Below, piece after piece: positions 25,462 to 34,609 of a DNA stretch of 64,000 nucleotides. Origin of the DNA: an uncultured Chloroflexia bacterium (GTDB lineage Bacteria; Chloroflexota; Limnocylindria; Limnocylindrales; CSP1-4); the NCBI GenBank assembly GCA_963821595.1, contig CAWGEL010000019.1:25566-89565 (forward strand). Reading direction: 5' to 3'. Each line of letters starts with the position of its first letter. Positions within the stretch are counted from its first letter, which is position 1. Both the position numbers and the translations under genes were made by a program. The notes under the pieces are model-generated. The model had not been told where the DNA came from. It searched no databases and saw nothing but the letters and a program-made list of their open reading frames with translations.

Positions 25462-25675
25462 CAGAGTCCCACCTGACTCATCGTCGGACGTTCGAGCGTG
25501 TGCCACGGGCCGCAACCGTGGTTCTGGCCCTGTCGGCGCGATCGCCACGGGCGGTCGACCCAACATCGAGTCGAGGGTGACTCATCGCGCGCGGCCGTGG
25601 CGCAGACCCCGATCTCCTGCCCTGACCCGGGCGAGCCGACAGGATCGGGCGGGCGGTGGTAGCCTCGCCGGGATC

Positions 25676-26629: not shown

Positions 26630-27541
26630 ATGGCCGGCTTCTTCCGCTTCCTCGCCTTCAGCCTCGGCCGGGCCCTCCAGGGCCTTCGGCGGAACCGCCT
26701 GATGTCGCTGGCGGCGAGCGCGACGATGCTGCTGATGCTCCTCCTCCTGGCGGGCTTCTGGCTGCTCCAGGCCGGCCTGGCCGCGACGGTCACCTACGTC
26801 GAGCAGAAGGTCGAGATCGTCGCGGAGCTGCGCGACGTCCCCGGCGCGGAGCCGGCCATGACGGTGGAGGCTGCCGCCCTGGCGCGCGAGGTCGCGGCCC
26901 AGCCGGTCGTCGAGACGGTCACGTACGTCTCCAAGGACCTCGCGCTCGCCCAGTTCCGGGAACGCCTGCGCGCTCGGGGGCAGACGGACCTGACGAGCTA
27001 CCTCGACCGTAACCCGTTGCCGGCGAGCCTCGAGGTGAAGCTGGTCGACCCCCGCGACTTCGGATCGGCGGTCACGCTCCTGAAGAACCGCCCGCTGGTG
27101 GTCGCCGACGTCGTCGAAGTCCAGGACGTGGTCAACCGACTGACCACCGTGACCGACGTCCTGCGCACGGGTGGCGTCGGGATCCTCGTGCTGGTGGGCC
27201 TGGTCGTCCTGTTCATCGTCGTGAACACGATCCGGCTGGCCGTGCTCGCGCGGCGCGAGGAGATCGAGATCATGCGCCTCGTCGGCGCTTCGGGCGCGTT
27301 CATCCGCTGGCCGTTCATCTTCGAAGGCGCCCTGGTCGGCCTCATCGCGGCCCTTGCGGCGATCGGCCTGCTGGTCCTCGTGGCGGACCCTGTCTCGAGC
27401 TTCATGGCCGGGTTCTTCGAGGTCCTGCCGCTCCAGCTGGGGGCGGCCGGGCGCGACCTCGTGGTCCTGATCCTGGGCACCGGCGTCGGCCTCGGCGTCT
27501 TCGGGTCGTGGCTGTCGGTACGGAGCTACCTGGGTCGCTGA
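26630..27541 (+). CDS. ftsX: Cell division permease FtsX
   Basis: RN.LMS.A, NPLPASLEV, NTIRLAVLARREEIEIMRLVGA, FIRWPFIFEG. Confidence 0.93.
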   Translation: MAGFFRFLAFSLGRALQGLRRNRLMSLAASATMLLMLLLLAGFWLLQAGLAATVTYVEQKVEIVAELRDVPGAEPAMTVEAAALAREVAAQPVVETVTYVSKDLALAQFRERLRARGQTDLTSYLDRNPLPASLEVKLVDPRDFGSAVTLLKNRPLVVADVVEVQDVVNRLTTVTDVLRTGGVGILVLVGLVVLFIVVNTIRLAVLARREEIEIMRLVGASGAFIRWPFIFEGALVGLIAALAAIGLLVLVADPVSSFMAGFFEVLPLQLGAAGRDLVVLILGTGVGLGVFGSWLSVRSYLGR

Positions 27542-27665: not shown

Positions 27666-29174
27666 ATGACCGAATACGACCCCAGCCCCTCGGCATCCGG
27701 GCTCCCGCCAGCGACGGCCGCAGACACGGCTGCGGGCGCTGCCCCCGCCGACCTGATCCCCGCGGTCGGCCAGCCGGCCTCGGCAGCAGCCGCGGCACTT
27801 CCGCTCCCGGCTGGGCTGACTCCCGGTGCTGTGCCGCTGACCGCGGACGACGCTCAGGATCCGGCGACACGGCCGGCGGTCGTCGCGCGACGGCGCACGC
27901 TCGCGCTTCCGCTCGCCCTCCTGGCGGCTGCCGTCCTCGGCGGCGCCGCGCTCTTCGTCGCCGGCTTCTCGCTCGGCAGCAGCAGCTTCCTCCACCCCGG
28001 AACTCCGGCCAACGAGGCCGCCATGTTCCAGCCGTTCTGGGACACGTGGGACTCGATCACCAACGCATACGTCGGGCCCTACGACCGGCAGGCGCTCGTC
28101 AATGGCGCGATCGACGGCATGATCAAGGCGCTGGGTGACCCGTTCTCGGGCTACATGAGCCCCCAGGATCTCCAGAAGGCCCGCGAGAGCCTGAACGGCC
28201 AGTTCGAGGGCATCGGCGCCGAGGTGTCGGCGCGTTCGACGAACGGCGGCAGCAGTTGCTCGCCGTTCGGCCCGACCTGCCGGATGACCGTCACCCGGCC
28301 GATTCCCGGCTCCCCGGCCGAGAAGGCTGGCCTCCAGGCGGGCGACGTCATCACGGCGATCGACGGCACGGCCGTCGATGGTCTCACGCTCGACGCCGCC
28401 ATTGCCAAGGTGCGTGGGCCGAAAGGCACGACCGTCACCCTGACGCTGCTGCGGGGCGGCCCCGGGGCGGGCACTCCGGTGGACCTCGCGATCGTGCGCG
28501 ACACGATCTCGCAGCCGCAGGTGTCCACTCGAGAACTGCCCGGTGGCGGAGCCTACATCAAGCTCAGTGCGTTCTCCGACCCGGCCGCCGTGGAATTCTC
28601 GGCAGCCGTCAAGGCGGCTGTCGCTCGGGGCGCGACCTCGATCGTCGTCGACCTCCGGGACAACGGGGGTGGCTACATCACGGCCGCCAGAGCAATCGCC
28701 AGCCAGTTCCTGGCCAGCGGGCCAATCTTCTACGAGGTGGGCGCGAACGGCGACCGCATGCCGACGGACGTCGCGCCCGGCGGGGCGGCCACCGCTTCGT
28801 CGATCCACGTCGCCATCCTGGTCAACGGTGGGACCGCCTCCGCCTCGGAGATCGTGGCCGGGGCGCTGCAGGACACAGGACGCGCGATCCTCGTTGGCGC
28901 ACAGACGTACGGCAAGGGGACGATCCAGGAGTGGATCGACCTGAGCCATGACCAGGGCGGCCGAACGGTGACGAGCGGCGGCTTCCGCCTGACCATCGCC
29001 AAGTGGCTGACGCCGAACGGCCGCTGGATCCACAAGAAGGGGCTCACGCCGAATGTCGTGGTGGCGCCGAATGCGCCGGATCCCGGCCCGACCGGGGATC
29101 CGTACATCGACGCCGCGCTGAAGGCGCTGGGGTCGACCGGAATGCAGCCTGGCGCGCTGGCGAAGGCAGCGTAG
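27666..29174 (+). CDS. ctpA: S41 family C-terminal processing protease with PDZ domain
   Basis: TM anchor, LGDPFS, FEGIGA, DLRDNGGG, TASASEIVAGALQD, TYGKG, WLTPNG. Confidence 0.92.
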   Translation: MTEYDPSPSASGLPPATAADTAAGAAPADLIPAVGQPASAAAAALPLPAGLTPGAVPLTADDAQDPATRPAVVARRRTLALPLALLAAAVLGGAALFVAGFSLGSSSFLHPGTPANEAAMFQPFWDTWDSITNAYVGPYDRQALVNGAIDGMIKALGDPFSGYMSPQDLQKARESLNGQFEGIGAEVSARSTNGGSSCSPFGPTCRMTVTRPIPGSPAEKAGLQAGDVITAIDGTAVDGLTLDAAIAKVRGPKGTTVTLTLLRGGPGAGTPVDLAIVRDTISQPQVSTRELPGGGAYIKLSAFSDPAAVEFSAAVKAAVARGATSIVVDLRDNGGGYITAARAIASQFLASGPIFYEVGANGDRMPTDVAPGGAATASSIHVAILVNGGTASASEIVAGALQDTGRAILVGAQTYGKGTIQEWIDLSHDQGGRTVTSGGFRLTIAKWLTPNGRWIHKKGLTPNVVVAPNAPDPGPTGDPYIDAALKALGSTGMQPGALAKAA

Positions 29175-29258
29175 CGCGTAGCGGCGACCTGATCTTCCCG
29201 GATATCCACCGGGAGGATCCTCGGTGGTTCCAGCGATCGATTCCCGTGCCGCCACGGA

Positions 29259-29287
29259 CTCGCCGAGCGGGATCCACGCTCGGCGAG
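29259..29287. terminator. 11-bp GC-rich hairpin after ctpA
   Basis: CTCGCCGAGCG-GGATCCA-CGCTCGGCGAG; no U tract. Confidence 0.4.
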
Positions 29288-29482
29288 CGACCCTTCCGCC
29301 GCCGCCAGTGCCCACGAACCTGCCCAACATCCCCGGAGCGGATATCTGGCGACTGACGGTGGCGAAGCGCCTCTCACGATGCTTCCCGTGGATGCCCGGC
29401 AACTCGCCGACCGACCGGAGACGCCGGTCCTCATCGCCGGCCGCGCGCCCCGGCGGCCCGCCCGCGCCCTCGACCGGGGCTC

Positions 29483-29511
29483 TTGCCAGAATCGCCGCCC
29501 TCCTGTACGGT
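29483..29511 (+). promoter_or_regulatory. sigma70-type promoter of a small transcript
   Basis: TTGCCA-N17-TACGGT. Confidence 0.6.
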
Positions 29512-29539
29512 TCGGACGATCGAAAGGAGGTGATGTGCA

Positions 29540-29590
29540 GTGACAGAGAGCAGTCCGCGTCGTTGCACCACCTCGGAGGCGGCCGTCTGA
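29540..29590 (+). CDS. 16-aa micropeptide MTESSPRRCTTSEAAV
   Basis: GTG lies 9 nt after GGAGG of a perfect extended SD; TGA at 29588-29590. Confidence 0.45.
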   Translation: MTESSPRRCTTSEAAV

Positions 29591-29625
29591 CGGAAGCCAC
29601 CCGAGAGTGGTGCTCGAAGCGAATT

Positions 29626-29657
29626 GAACGCCGGCCCTGACTGTGGGGCCGGCGTTC
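29626..29657 (+). terminator. Terminator-like hairpin
   Basis: GAACGCCGGCCC-N8-GGGCCGGCGTTC. Confidence 0.65.
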
Positions 29658-29821
29658 GTGCGTCCGAGGGCCGCCTACAATTTCGGCCGGACCGGCGCCT
29701 TTGGCCGAGCCGGATTCAGCCGAGCGGGCGGCGTCAGCGGTCGCAACCGGGGATCTTCCAGGGCGCCGGCCGGACCGGCCAACCCGGCCCACGAATCCTC
29801 CGCGGCGCGAGCGAAGGGAGC

Positions 29822-30295
29822 ATGGCAACCATGGGCGAGGGGACCGTCGCCCTCAATCGAAAAGCACGCCACGAATTCTCCATCGAGGAGACGTTCGAGG
29901 CTGGCCTGGTCCTGACGGGCACCGAGATCAAGTCGATCCGGGCCGGCAAGGTCAACCTGCAGGACGCGTACGCGCGCATCGAGCGGAGCGAGGCGTGGCT
30001 GGTCGGCGCCCACATCGCGCCGTACGCCACCGGTAACCGCTGGAACCACGAGGCGAAGCGGTCGCGCAAGCTGCTCCTCCACCGCGACGAGATCGACGAA
30101 TTGCTGGGCAAGACGAAGTCGAAGGGGCTGGTCCTGGTTCCGCTCCGCCTCTACATCGACGATCGGAGTCACGCCAAGATCGAGCTCGGCCTGGGCCGCG
30201 GCAAGCAGCTCCACGATCGCCGCCGCGACATCGCGGACCGCGAGGCGAAGCGGGAGATCGCGCGCGAGATGGCGGCAGCCGCGCGGGGGCGCTAG
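29822..30295 (+). CDS. smpB: SsrA-binding protein SmpB
   Basis: NRKARHEF, EAGLVLTGTEIKSIR, RKLLLHR, GKQLHDRR; AAGGGAG RBS. Confidence 0.96.
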   Translation: MATMGEGTVALNRKARHEFSIEETFEAGLVLTGTEIKSIRAGKVNLQDAYARIERSEAWLVGAHIAPYATGNRWNHEAKRSRKLLLHRDEIDELLGKTKSKGLVLVPLRLYIDDRSHAKIELGLGRGKQLHDRRRDIADREAKREIAREMAAAARGR

Positions 30296-30361
30296 TCAGG
30301 CCTTTGCCGGGCTCCGCACGGCCGAGCGGTAGTCAGCCTTTGCCGGGCTCCGCACGGCCGA
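30293..30361. repeat. Near-tandem 32/33-bp direct duplication at the smpB/methyltransferase junction
   Basis: TAGTCAG(G)CCTTTGCCGGGCTCCGCACGGCCGA at 30293-30325 and 30330-30361. Confidence 0.9.
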
Positions 30362-31280
30362 CAGGCACCACGCCTTCAAGGCGCCGGGTCGTCGCGGCAA
30401 GGTAGGCGGGATCGATCTCGAAGCCGACGAAGCGCCGGCCGAGCTCGATCGCGGCGACCCCGGTCGAGCCGACGCCCATGAACGGGTCGAGCACCAGGTC
30501 GCCGGGCCTCGACGCCAGCTCCAGGAGGCGTCGCAGCACGGCCACCGGCTTCTGCGTGGGGTGCTTCGGGTCGCGCACCCGTTCGGCGCCCATGCAGATC
30601 GGCGATTCGATGAAGTTGTGCATGTCGCGCTGGCGCCCGAAGTTCCAGGTATGCCCGCGGTTCCACGCGCAGGCGATCAGTTCCACGGAGTTCAGGAAGC
30701 CCGCGCGGCGGAGCTTGGGCGGTGGGTTCGTCTTGTGCCAGGCGATGAACTGGAACGTGTCGAAGGCCGGGTCGAAGGCCGCGTGCCAGCGGCCCAGCAG
30801 GTTGTAGCTCGTGAACGCGAAGACGTTGCCCGTGGGTGCGAGCACGCGCCGGAACTCGTCGAGCCACTCGGCGGGCTCGAACGTGGCCTGGTCCCACGCC
30901 GCCACGTCGTTGTTGAAGTCGGCCCGCCAGTCCAGGCGGATGTTGCCGGTCGAGTAGCCGGCGAGGTTGTACGGCGGATCGGTGAGGATGAAGTCGACCG
31001 AATGGTCCGGGATGCCGCGGAGCAGCTCGCGGGCATCGCCCATTCGGACCCTCCATTCGGACCCTTCTGCCGTGATGCGCGTCGGTGCATCAGGCGGGGC
31101 GTCGGGCGCGGGGGGTCCTCCCGTGATGCGTATCGGTGCATCAGGCGGGGCGTCGGGCGCGGGGGGTGCCGGGGTGATGTGCGGAGGCGCATCAGGCGAC
31201 GGGTGTCCTTCTCCGGGCACGAACCGCGCCGGCGTCCCCGCCCGCGGCGCCCCTGCCCGCGGCGCGCGCGGAAGGCTCAT
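30333..31280 (-). CDS. Orphan beta-class N6A/N4C DNA methyltransferase
   Basis: TDPPY precedes HPTQKP and VLDPFMGVGSTG (beta order); Pro-rich repeated N-terminus; ATGA overlap with the upstream GNAT. Confidence 0.92.
   Translation of the reverse strand: MSLPRAPRAGAPRAGTPARFVPGEGHPSPDAPPHITPAPPAPDAPPDAPIRITGGPPAPDAPPDAPTRITAEGSEWRVRMGDARELLRGIPDHSVDFILTDPPYNLAGYSTGNIRLDWRADFNNDVAAWDQATFEPAEWLDEFRRVLAPTGNVFAFTSYNLLGRWHAAFDPAFDTFQFIAWHKTNPPPKLRRAGFLNSVELIACAWNRGHTWNFGRQRDMHNFIESPICMGAERVRDPKHPTQKPVAVLRRLLELASRPGDLVLDPFMGVGSTGVAAIELGRRFVGFEIDPAYLAATTRRLEGVVPVGRAEPGKG
31071..31203. repeat. 51-bp coding tandem repeat (~2.6 copies)
   Basis: Encodes PPAPDAPPDAPxRIT units in the methyltransferase N-terminus. 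Confidence 0.85.
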
Positions 31281-31783
31281 CGCTGGTTCTCGGGGATGAG
31301 GCGCTCGACGATCACGACGTCGAGCCAGCGGCCGTCGAGCTGGCCGTGTCGTTCGTATGTGCCGACCTCGCGGAAGCCGACCCTCCGCATCAGGCGAAGG
31401 CTGGCCTGGTTCGCGGCGAACACACGTGAGACGAGCTTCCAGAAGCCGGCGTCGCGCGCCGCGGCCACCAGCGCCTCCATCGCGATCCGGCCCACCCCGC
31501 GTCCGCGAGCGTCCGCGGCCACGTAGACGCCGAACTCGGCGATCCCCGCGTAGCACTCGCGCGGCCGATAGGTCGACGTCGAGGCGAAGGCGATCACCCG
31601 CCCATCTTCCTCGACGACCACGATCGGGTGGCGCCCGTCGAACCAGCCGCCAACGTCCTCGGCCGTGCGCAGGCGGGTCTCGAAGGTCGCCTGCCGTCCT
31701 TCGATCCCTTCGTTGTAGATGGTCGCGATCGCCGCGGCATCGTCGGCTGTCGCCGGCCGCGTCCGGAATCCAGGGTTGGTCAT
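31277..31783 (-). CDS. GNAT acetyltransferase, ArsN1/phosphinothricin acetyltransferase (YncA) type
   Basis: IYNEGIEGRQATFET, YRPRECYAGIAEFGVYV, RGRGVG, WKLVSRVF, WLDVVIVERL. Confidence 0.88.
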   Translation of the reverse strand: MTNPGFRTRPATADDAAAIATIYNEGIEGRQATFETRLRTAEDVGGWFDGRHPIVVVEEDGRVIAFASTSTYRPRECYAGIAEFGVYVAADARGRGVGRIAMEALVAAARDAGFWKLVSRVFAANQASLRLMRRVGFREVGTYERHGQLDGRWLDVVIVERLIPENQR

Positions 31784-31926
31784 CGGCGCCGGCCGAACGT
31801 CGTCGAGGGCATGCCGGGATGGTAGCGGTGCACGCGACGCTGGGCGTGAGCGCCGGGGAGATCGACTGGAAGAGCACCGGGCCGCGGCGGCCGTGGCGAC
31901 GAACCCCGCGCGCGAGCCCGGAGCGC

Positions 31927-32439
31927 CTAGCTGCCAGCGAGGTGGAGCACGTACCGTGGCGCCGCTGTCGTCGAGCCGCTGGCAGGCTCCACGGCGAACG
32001 TGGCGGCCTGCCGCGATGCCTGGAGCGAACCGGAGCTGCCCAGGTCGAACCAGACCATGGGCTGGCCCGTGTCGAACCTGACCCAGGAGACCAGGCGGCC
32101 ATGGTCGGCGAACGCGACCACGAAGGCCTGGTTGCTGGAGCCGTCGCCGAACTTCGCCGCGCCCCCGAAGACCTGCGGGCCCTTGACGGCGGCCGTCCGC
32201 CCGTCCCAGACGTAGGCCGTGTCCCAGGTCGCGGTCACGATATCCGCAAGGCGAACGGTTCCGCCGGGGCCGGCCTGGCCGGCAGCTCGCACGATGCCGG
32301 TCTGGATCTCGGCCTGCGAATGCGGCGTCGAGTCGTACAGCATGGCCAGCACCGGCCCGAACGTGAGCACGGCGAGCAATGCGCCGGCAAGCGCCAGCGC
32401 AGCGACGGCGGCCGCGCCAAGCATCGCCCGCTTCGACAT
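31927..32439 (-). CDS. Hypothetical secreted or membrane-anchored protein
   Basis: N-terminal hydrophobic segment; TACGCT -10 box 7 nt upstream of ATG. Confidence 0.6.
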   Translation of the reverse strand: MSKRAMLGAAAVAALALAGALLAVLTFGPVLAMLYDSTPHSQAEIQTGIVRAAGQAGPGGTVRLADIVTATWDTAYVWDGRTAAVKGPQVFGGAAKFGDGSSNQAFVVAFADHGRLVSWVRFDTGQPMVWFDLGSSGSLQASRQAATFAVEPASGSTTAAPRYVLHLAGS

Positions 32440-34236: not shown

Positions 34237-34609
34237 GGGGATGCGTGGTCTCGACGGGGCCCTGCAGCCCGGGAACGCGAGCCGAGGATGCCGCTCTGGC
34301 CTCGTTAAAAGGCGGCAAAACGAAGTACCTGCCAACAAGCAGCCTGCTCTCGCCCTCGCCGCTTAGGCGGTAAGGTGAGCGTGGAAGCGGCCTCCTCCCC
34401 GTGGGCCGTGGAAGCGTCATTCAGCGGGGATGCAGCCCCGGCAAGCGCCGCGTAGCCGGGAGCGAAGCCCGATCTAGGGACACGCAGCTGGGCTGACAGC
34501 AACCCTGCCGATGGGGGTGCGCCAGCCGAGATCAATCATCGGACACGCTCGTAGTGGTTCCGGGTCACGGGTTTCGGACGGGGAGTTCGACTCTCCCCCA
34601 TCTCCACCA
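34237..34609 (+). ncRNA. ssrA: tmRNA, tag peptide (A)ANKQPALALAA
   Basis: 5' GGGGATG pairs with 3' CATCTCC-ACCA (G3.U); TCGAC near the 5' end; TTCGACT T-loop; tag frame 34331-34366. Confidence 0.96.

Follow-up and report, generated by a model that had tools for sequence, protein, structure and literature searches.

A conserved micro-gene with a maximal Shine-Dalgarno sequence and an internal copy of the 16S rRNA tail between ctpA-like and smpB genes in Limnocylindria

Anatomy of the micro-gene

We have analysed a 64,000-nt stretch of DNA (the window; positions 25,566 to 89,565 of contig CAWGEL010000019.1, GenBank assembly GCA_963821595.1) from an uncultured Chloroflexota bacterium of the class Limnocylindria, and in particular a small unit on its plus strand (29483-29665, window numbering) that lies inside the 647-nt gap between a ctpA-like protease gene and smpB. 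This unit, which we call the micro-gene, comprises a promoter, a Shine-Dalgarno sequence (SD) of maximal length, a 16-codon open reading frame (ORF) that carries a mimic of the 16S rRNA tail, and a terminal hairpin. An initial annotation, made from the sequence alone, had placed the promoter, the SD, the GTG-started ORF and a hairpin masking the SD at coordinates that are all correct against the sequence. The elements of the micro-gene, followed by its neighbours, are:

29483..29511, plus strand: promoter, with -35 box TTGCCA (29483-29488), a 17-nt spacer and -10 box TACGGT (29506-29511)
29522..29534, plus strand: maximal SD GAAAGGAGGTGAT, its 13 nt perfectly complementary to the single-stranded 3' tail of the 16S rRNA encoded in this genome
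29540..29590, plus strand: GTG-started ORF of 16 codons plus TGA, MTESSPRRCTTSEAAV, read from the sequence
29559..29574, plus strand: anti-SD mimic inside the ORF, GTCGTTGCACCACCTC, the 3' strand of the masking helix P1 (5' strand 29527-29544)
29578..29598, plus strand: small hairpin P2 from the predicted fold; the stop codon (29588-29590) falls at the loop
29601..29613, plus strand: SD-like anti-anti-SD CCGAGAGTGGTGC, consensus GGGUGGU, which partners 29565-29576 in the alternative helix Palt
29626..29665, plus strand: terminal hairpin of 13 bp (29626-29657) and then GTGCGTCC, from folding and covariation
26630-27541: ftsX
27666..29174, plus strand: S41 C-terminal processing peptidase with a PDZ domain (ctpA-like; Pfam PF03572 at 1e-44, PDZ, CtpB_N-like)
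29822..30295, plus strand: smpB (Pfam PF01668 at 1e-58)
34237-34609: transfer-messenger RNA (tmRNA; Rfam), with the tag ANKQPALALAA

The SD had been described as a 12-nt complement of the 16S tail, and AAAGGAGGTGAT is in fact located at 29523-29534; the true match is 13 nt and starts at 29522. The genome's own 16S 3' end reads ...GGATCACCTCCTTT followed by CT, and the SD 13-mer is unique in the 3.59-Mb assembly, apart from the antisense strands of two 16S genes. Upstream of it, a TTGnnn-N17/18-TAnnnT pattern ends 9-11 nt 5' of GAAAGG in 133 of 135 distinct upstream sequences, compared with 0.8 expected from shuffles. Because the promoter keeps this constant distance, transcription is predicted to start at about 29518-29520, that is, 2-4 nt 5' of the SD. 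A generic promoter and terminator scan made no call at the micro-gene, which can be explained by a -10 box that is weak with respect to the consensus and by the poor U-tract.

The terminal hairpin, first given as 12 bp, is present and has 13. Along 126 copies both of its sides vary at 9 of the 13 pairs while 97.7% of the cells remain paired, and its covariation score was not matched by any shuffle. In the family of the window the hairpin is followed by UUCGUGCG, a poor U-tract, and real U-tracts are found in families f3 and f4 of the class and in other classes. We consider this hairpin terminator-like, the predicted transcript being of ∼145 nt. The predicted folding energy of the 151-nt RNA is -78.3 kcal/mol, compared with -56.9 ± 3.9 kcal/mol for 200 shuffles (z = -5.5).

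Two other complements of the 16S tail in the assembly, both outside the window, can be mentioned here. One (G000:C11:43267), among several 12-nt matches that are the next strongest, precedes an apparent ribosomal protein S21 gene (rpsU, named by eye). At the other (G000:C28:225443), GAAAGGAGGTG precedes an ORF of 8 codons, MAKASGGA, with a TTGACG-type promoter-like sequence upstream, and this may be another micro-ORF unit.

Distribution, reading frame and alternative pairings

Within the genus, the micro-gene is present in 23 of 24 other genomes with 76-83% identity, and the conserved block extends from ∼29478-29482 (the -35 box) to ∼29666-29676 (just past the hairpin), with flanks that do not align. 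A scan for the exact motif in one genome per species revealed at least 120 places and, among the matches listed, nearly all were labelled as Chloroflexota or Limnocylindria and a few otherwise. A covariance model made from 126 distinct copies, our main set, which was ascertained by the 5' motif, was run on 151 genomes of the class and gave one match each in 121 of them (f1 44/44, f2 6/6, f4 49/50, f5 1/1, and f3 20/49), the matches in f3 being weak and its form divergent and longer. These tallies take in four genomes flagged as unpublished (G102, G122, G131, and G157), without which the count is 117/147. In the phylum outside the class, weak matches appeared in 9 of 136 sampled genomes. Hence, the discrete unit proposed in the initial annotation, with its own promoter, maximal SD, ORF-embedded masking hairpin and terminal hairpin between ctpA and smpB, is a conserved one; homologues that keep the SD, the hairpin and the terminal hairpin do exist, and a genome-wide count of paralogues leaves the micro-gene as a single copy.

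The ORF has 13-17 codons in all 126 distinct copies and the indels inside it are all multiples of three. The start and the mimic are separated by 19, 22, 25 or 28 nt, and the mimic and the stop by 20, 23 or 26 nt; the stop codons lie at one homologous site (TAG 64, TAA 37, and TGA 25), 20-40 nt before the terminal hairpin, and the lengths 3' of the stop show no modulo-three bias (43/42/41). This pattern is the signature of a translated frame and indicates that the ORF is under selection to remain open. However, the residues are barely constrained, as 80 different peptides are found within the 126 copies and the ratio of nonsynonymous to synonymous polymorphism (pN/pS), a crude estimate from only 13-17 codons and non-independent pairs, is 0.57-0.71 for the codons within the loop of the hairpin and 0.93-1.13 for the final nine codons. 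Furthermore, the residues that recur overlap RNA motifs, C-T-T-S being UGC ACC ACC UCG of the mimic and Glu lying within SD-like GGAG/GAGG, so that their conservation is explained by the pairing motifs. As the frame is kept and its residues are not, translation seems to matter rather than the peptide; what is selected would be a ribosome that reads through the mimic and halts at a fixed point, the P2 loop, and not its product.

The peptides (13-17 aa) are rich in S/T/D/E/R and have a mean Kyte-Doolittle hydropathy of -0.28, in agreement with the earlier opinion that a membrane toxin is unlikely. Their C-terminal residue is V, A, L or I in 107/126 copies and R, K, N or H in the other 19. The suggestion that the peptide bears a degron is not supported, given the pN/pS of the last nine codons, these 19 ends and the residues explained by RNA motifs. 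We found no run of regulatory codons in the micro-ORF copies. A 2-codon ORF from an upstream GUG (GUG CAG UGA) was also considered and rejected, as it needs A as the next base, which is true in 90/126 copies only.

In P1, GAGGTG (29527-32) pairs with CACCTC (29569-74) and GTGCAGTGAC (29535-44) with GTCGTTGCAC (29559-68), forming 16 bp with two G·U pairs and a 2-nt bulge; this helix is also predicted by RNAalifold. The mimic (..GCACCACCUC..; ..CUGCACCACCUC..), which reproduces the 16S 3' tail, forms P1 by pairing with the SD and the initiation region. P1 is rebuilt with other sequences in f4 (GGUGGUGUG/CACGCCACC), f2 (GAGGUGGUG/CGCCGCCUC) and f3 (GGAGUGGG/C(C)CUCACUUC), and in another class of Chloroflexota it is a perfect 15-bp helix (GAGGUGAUGCC../..GGCAUCACCUC). 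The arms of P2 also vary yet pair in homologues (GAUCGUC/GACGAUC, GGUCAAC/GUUGACC, GCUC/GAGC), with the stop codon in or at the loop as judged by eye.

When the SD was forced to be single-stranded in the folding, the mimic paired with the downstream GGGUGGU-type motif in 126/126 copies, and a compensatory change from CCACC/GGUGG to CCGCC/GCGG is present in nine copies of two lineages. P1 and Palt are mutually exclusive. The predicted energies of the best structures on each side differ by a median of 0.6 kcal/mol, and by 3 kcal/mol or less in 87/126 copies; without constraint, 66 copies fold optimally with P1 and 60 with Palt. For the window's own copy the minimum-energy fold is Palt, in which the SD is unmasked (-75.4 kcal/mol, vs. 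-70.1 for the masking P1). In f3 the third strand, CUGAGGUGA, lies inside the ORF, where it encodes T-E-V, and follows the same logic. This three-part design is found with quite different sequences in f3 and in two loci of a family from another Chloroflexota class (L297 and L298).

In the unit of these two loci (L297:714-849 and L298:722-857), which has 14 codons, MSDQPIGITSGKVS, SD and mimic form a perfect 15-bp hairpin; a third strand GGGGUGAUG and a textbook bidirectional terminator are also present, and smpB is not adjacent. At three loci from metagenome-assembled genomes (L080, L102, and L123) the first ∼30 nt are in common with the micro-gene, from the SD to GUG AGU GAA CG, and the ORF differs, with 24 codons (MSERSSRAGG..). 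The motif is at 1501-1521 of the minus strand in L080 and L102, and the context of the three includes an ABC ATPase and a biotin-ligase-like gene, smpB not being near.

CC2171 and other comparable systems

When the whole window was compared with Rfam at gathering thresholds, the tmRNA was the sole match and the micro-gene had no family above threshold. The initial annotation had called the unit undescribed, and this holds at that threshold; it has to be qualified by the CC2171 model (RF01867), which matched the micro-gene with 26.5 bits, below its threshold of 75 (E = 0.0014 when 701 nt were searched). In genome-wide scans with this model, the micro-gene was the best match in 18 of 21 relatives and the second best in G001, and it was not found in G009 and G031; scores in 20 of the 21 ranged from 16.2 to 36.4 bits, none reaching 75. 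Because the model picks the micro-gene as its best match in 18/21 relatives, CC2171 is its nearest relative or analogue. Other matches at permissive thresholds (mir-662, Xoo2, Scr6925, CRISPR repeats, HgcC, and Rhizobiales-2) had E values of 0.2-9 and were taken as chance.

CC2171, reportedly first described by Landt et al. in 2008, is an alphaproteobacterial small RNA (sRNA) that resembles the micro-gene in several respects. It is autonomous, its 5' CGAAAGGAGGUGAU is complementary to the 16S tail, its ..CAGUG contains a GUG start followed by a short ORF, and the micro-gene has the same succession of a single-stranded perfect SD at the 5' end, GUG and a short ORF, translation of the latter being suggested by frame conservation. 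All three stops are used (TGA 24, TAA 18, and TAG 17 in 59 metagenome ORFs), and the CC2171 ORF motif is in frame in 39/44 cases, a coding signature. Both have an SD-like GAGGU near the end of the ORF, internal hairpins and a strong terminal hairpin, which is G+C-rich in RF01867 as it is in the micro-gene, and f2 has a 15-nt string, GCCUCUCACGAGGUC, in common with a true CC2171 locus. However, the multi-branch closing helix of RF01867 (CAUUGUC/GACAAUG, around two internal hairpins) is missing from the micro-gene, both of its strands being gapped for the window. CC2171 ORFs are longer (21-29 codons), their SD complement reaches 17 nt, into the start codon, and is unmasked in most folds, and the promoter type differs. 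The genomic context differs as well, as none of the 119 CC2171-motif loci among the matches listed is beside smpB or ctpA, and Caulobacter CC2171 lies between a patatin-like gene and an isovaleryl-CoA dehydrogenase gene.

CC2171 has been seen in Caulobacter by RNA-seq and tiling array, and Dataset S1 of Schrader et al. (2014; PMC4117421) lists there the sRNA CCNA_R0051 (2404309-2404501), with a mapped triphosphate 5' end, and inside it the ribosome-profiling ORF CCNA_03965 (2404323-2404409). The same work reports two earlier 'ncRNAs' as translated (Schrader et al. 2014). A preprint shows CC2171 on a Northern blot in Methylorubrum extorquens and states that the condition affecting it was unidentified (bioRxiv 10.1101/2022.01.24.477521). 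The accessible portions of the CC2171 sRNA literature gave no function, a literature search on Limnocylindria sRNAs gave nothing, and two 25-aa CC2171 ORFs matched no family in Pfam or NCBIfam.

We also scanned metagenomes for the CC2171 5' motif and found at least 119 loci with three groups of ORFs. Group 1 (65 among the matches listed) has MSHC..W-I-L-A-S-x-E-V ORFs, and 5 of 7 tested pass the CC2171 threshold with 76.7-90.2 bits. Group 2 (31 among the matches listed; L175, L180, L181, L184, L185 and 26 more) adjoins a tRNA gene, has a 14-codon ORF (MS-x-TKRCHLAGIAR) and no Rfam match, and in it a UCACCUC tail mimic masks a 17-nt perfect SD ahead of a strong terminator. Group 3 comprises the 23 others among the matches listed. 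The nearest known thing to the micro-gene is therefore a real, translated and uncharacterised sRNA, and the micro-gene is a variant of this known but uncharacterised kind of RNA. The Limnocylindria unit could be a homologue of CC2171 or a convergent solution; convergence would be driven by the universal 16S tail, which each shared part mirrors. CC2171, an Rfam sRNA of unknown function, would be one face of a wider design in which a maximal SD is gated by a copy of the 16S tail.

Several other systems share single traits with the micro-gene. Type I toxin mRNAs and RNA thermometers likewise lock the ribosome site in a hairpin, whereas the masking strand of the micro-gene is a copy of the 16S tail inside the ORF and there is a third, competing strand. 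Moreover, the short hydrophilic peptides do not fit the hydrophobic, membrane-active product of a type I toxin mRNA, and a G+C-rich P1 of 12-16 bp, with a competing helix of equal stability, is not the weak thermolabile helix of a thermometer. The 5' mRNA stabiliser (STAB-SD) of Bacillus thuringiensis cryIIIA has an GAAAGGAGG-type perfect SD near the 5' end of the transcript; in the micro-gene, by contrast, a start codon and a conserved ORF come after the SD, which is also subject to masking in cis. Rescue factors of the ArfA/BrfA type have an ORF of ∼50-70 codons cut before its stop by a hairpin or terminator and are regulated through non-stop mRNA, and they were rejected as candidates because the ORF here has 13-17 codons and stops 20-40 nt before the terminal hairpin. 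Leader-peptide attenuators likewise place a short ORF that is translated within a small, terminated RNA heading a gene, and the micro-gene is indeed a co-oriented short ORF with a terminator-like hairpin upstream of smpB, except in the loci L086 and L087. However, no consistent antiterminator pairing with the 5' arm of this hairpin was found, it has no regulatory codons and its alternative pairings control its own SD. In Sinorhizobium, the rnTrpL RNA, encoding peTrpL (14 aa), is reported to be both an sRNA and a leader (PMC10117765).

Possible functions and the relation to smpB

From the observed anatomy and conservation, the open frame with a fixed stop, the weakly constrained residues and the two competing pairings, we infer a ribosome-sensing role and an output. 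Our tentative preference is that the micro-gene is an autonomous, ribosome-gated and translated regulatory RNA, in which the act of translation and the state of the RNA would matter, not the peptide. The sigma-70-type promoter would start an RNA with the 13-nt SD almost at its 5' end. The mimic, made ∼35 nt after the SD, would fold onto the SD and the GUG codon (P1, the locked state) unless GGGUGGU draws it off (Palt, the open state), both states being about equally stable by prediction. As the SD would be free only before the mimic has been synthesised, or while the mimic is held by the third strand, initiation should depend on the speed of 30S arrival: a 30S subunit would have to capture the SD against the mimic in cis, most easily during RNA synthesis. 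Initiation set in this way would gauge the free ribosomes, as the share of transcripts that become translated would report those ready to initiate. The translating ribosome would melt both helices and stop at the P2 loop, and the RNA could then relax into either state. The output, the weakest step of the proposal, would be an effect on the fate of its own transcript, possibly including read-through past the weak hairpin that feeds smpB, which is favoured because a separate smpB promoter is not evident in most genomes. If the gate does read free ribosomes, the micro-gene would serve to sense translational capacity in a simple and portable way, and its fixed position ahead of smpB would make the regulation of rescue testable.

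The evidence for a functional link to smpB and ctpA is synteny. smpB lies 3' on the same strand in 139 of 157 motif-bearing loci, many others being too short to judge, and the ctpA-like gene 5' on the same strand in 133/157; among these 157 some places are counted twice and ∼40 span only 621 nt. The gap between the micro-gene and smpB is often 20-60 nt, and TAnnnT hexamers are not enriched in it (38/120, vs. 29.7 expected), so that read-through from the micro-gene promoter may feed smpB. However, synteny could merely mirror the conserved ftsX-ctpA-smpB order, and we found no smpB leader in the leader-peptide and attenuation literature as judged by title or abstract.

A number of observations weigh against the role that we prefer. 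The 126 copies were folded without the 3' arm of the terminal hairpin and no consistent antiterminator partner was found (the 5' arm paired downstream in 83, with nothing in 23, with the 5' region in 16, with the loop in 3 and with the mimic in 1, in differing registers); as no conserved pairing was found to compete with the terminal hairpin, translation is left with no structural means of affecting read-through. In one species (L086) the micro-gene alone is inverted between ctpA and smpB, in another (L087) smpB is convergent, and in both the unit is intact. Related units are found beside smpB at none of the 119 metagenome loci among the matches listed and at none of five loci of other Chloroflexota classes. 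These cases and relatives indicate that the unit can persist without being linked to smpB in cis. Of six smpB starts in f3, three carry TACGCT and one TAGTCT at a distance of 6-7 nt on the 5' side, which hints at a separate and perhaps leaderless smpB promoter. Furthermore, P1 shows no double changes in the main set, which can be attributed to a collecting pattern that fixes its 5' strand; all folding energies are predictions; and the pN/pS values are crude. The f3 loci with these hexamers before the smpB ATG are L162, L163, L164 and L166 (three with TACGCT and one with TAGTCT).

If the unit were instead a classical cis leader of smpB, either a leader peptide with an attenuator or a 5' SD acting as an mRNA stabiliser, it would set the transcription of smpB or the stability of its mRNA, and the short RNA would be a by-product. 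The co-oriented smpB at a short distance, the lack of -10-like enrichment in the gap, the weak U-tract in f1 and residues as unconstrained as those of leader peptides are all compatible with this, as is an SD 2-4 nt from the predicted 5' end, which recalls the STAB-SD of cryIIIA. However, a leader would be expected to have an antiterminator pairing or a run of regulatory codons, neither of which was found, and the stop 20-40 nt before the hairpin, the strong U-tract terminators in f3 and f27, the intact units of L086 and L087 and the relatives that are not beside smpB make this explanation rather unlikely. The persistence of the unit uncoupled from smpB, together with its autonomous promoter and hairpin, would fit with a trans-acting or dual-function sRNA, in which the CCACCUC of the mimic would be a seed for the SDs of other mRNAs, and its own SD and GGGUGGU would be lids opened by translation. 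Other sRNAs are known to use C-rich seeds against SDs, and CC2171 itself is reported as a discrete sRNA in Methylorubrum and, in the cited dataset, in Caulobacter. Nevertheless, the mimic is paired in both predicted states and the fixed position of the stop would be left unexplained, and we consider such a function quite doubtful.

The complementarity to the entire single-stranded 16S tail, unique in the genome, and the conservation of the SD throughout the class would also be expected from a decoy, as the initial annotation had suggested, whose open SD would retain 30S subunits and leave fewer of them for other mRNAs, or would protect the 16S tail. We find this improbable, because one ribosome per short RNA would matter only at a very high copy number, an intact frame with a fixed stop is needless for a sponge and self-masking reduces its capacity. 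The frame, open in 126/126 copies, could on the other hand point to a functional micropeptide, for example one whose non-polar C-terminus would be a target of ClpXP or of the adjacent S41 protease; 107/126 peptides end in V, A, L or I, and a C-terminal pattern, [ST]-x-E-[VAMI]-x-[AV], recurs across families and even in CC2171 ORFs. However, the pN/pS of ∼1 in the last nine codons, the 19/126 peptides that end in R, K, N or H, lengths of 13 to 28 codons across families and the 80 different peptides are hard to reconcile with a selected product, and the conserved residues coincide with RNA motifs (UGC ACC ACC UC of the mimic, and GAG within SD-like GGAG/GAGGU), so that a micropeptide seems very unlikely too.

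The autonomous, ribosome-gated RNA could be extended to a cross-phylum class of micro-genes, comprising those of Limnocylindria and other Chloroflexota, CC2171 and at least one further metagenome group, each with a maximal SD, a 16S-tail copy inside its ORF and an SD-like third strand, that would act as a ribosome-titrated, bistable gauge of free 30S subunits and be wired to smpB in Limnocylindria, where the capacity for ribosome rescue would thereby follow ribosome availability; we regard this generalisation as speculative and on balance unlikely. The 13-17-codon ORFs of the class escape gene callers, and this work adds a gene that is conserved and probably translated to those known in an entire class of bacteria that are abundant and uncultured.

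Some other features of the locus were noted. The assembly has a G+C content of 72.4% and is 75% complete. An ORF of 138 aa (29224-29640) was considered as a longer protein gene and rejected, since its sequence upstream of 29478 is unconserved even within the genus. Directly 3' of the stop codon of the protease gene there is an 11-bp inverted repeat, GATCTTCCCGG..CCGGGAGGATC (29190-29220), where the sub-threshold match to Rhizobiales-2 is located (21.9 bits, E 3.2); it is probably the terminator of the protease gene and would set that gene apart from the micro-gene. Just past smpB, on the opposite strand, a long ORF (30333-32102, minus strand) includes ..ILTDPPYNL.., which we take to be a DNA methyltransferase motif.

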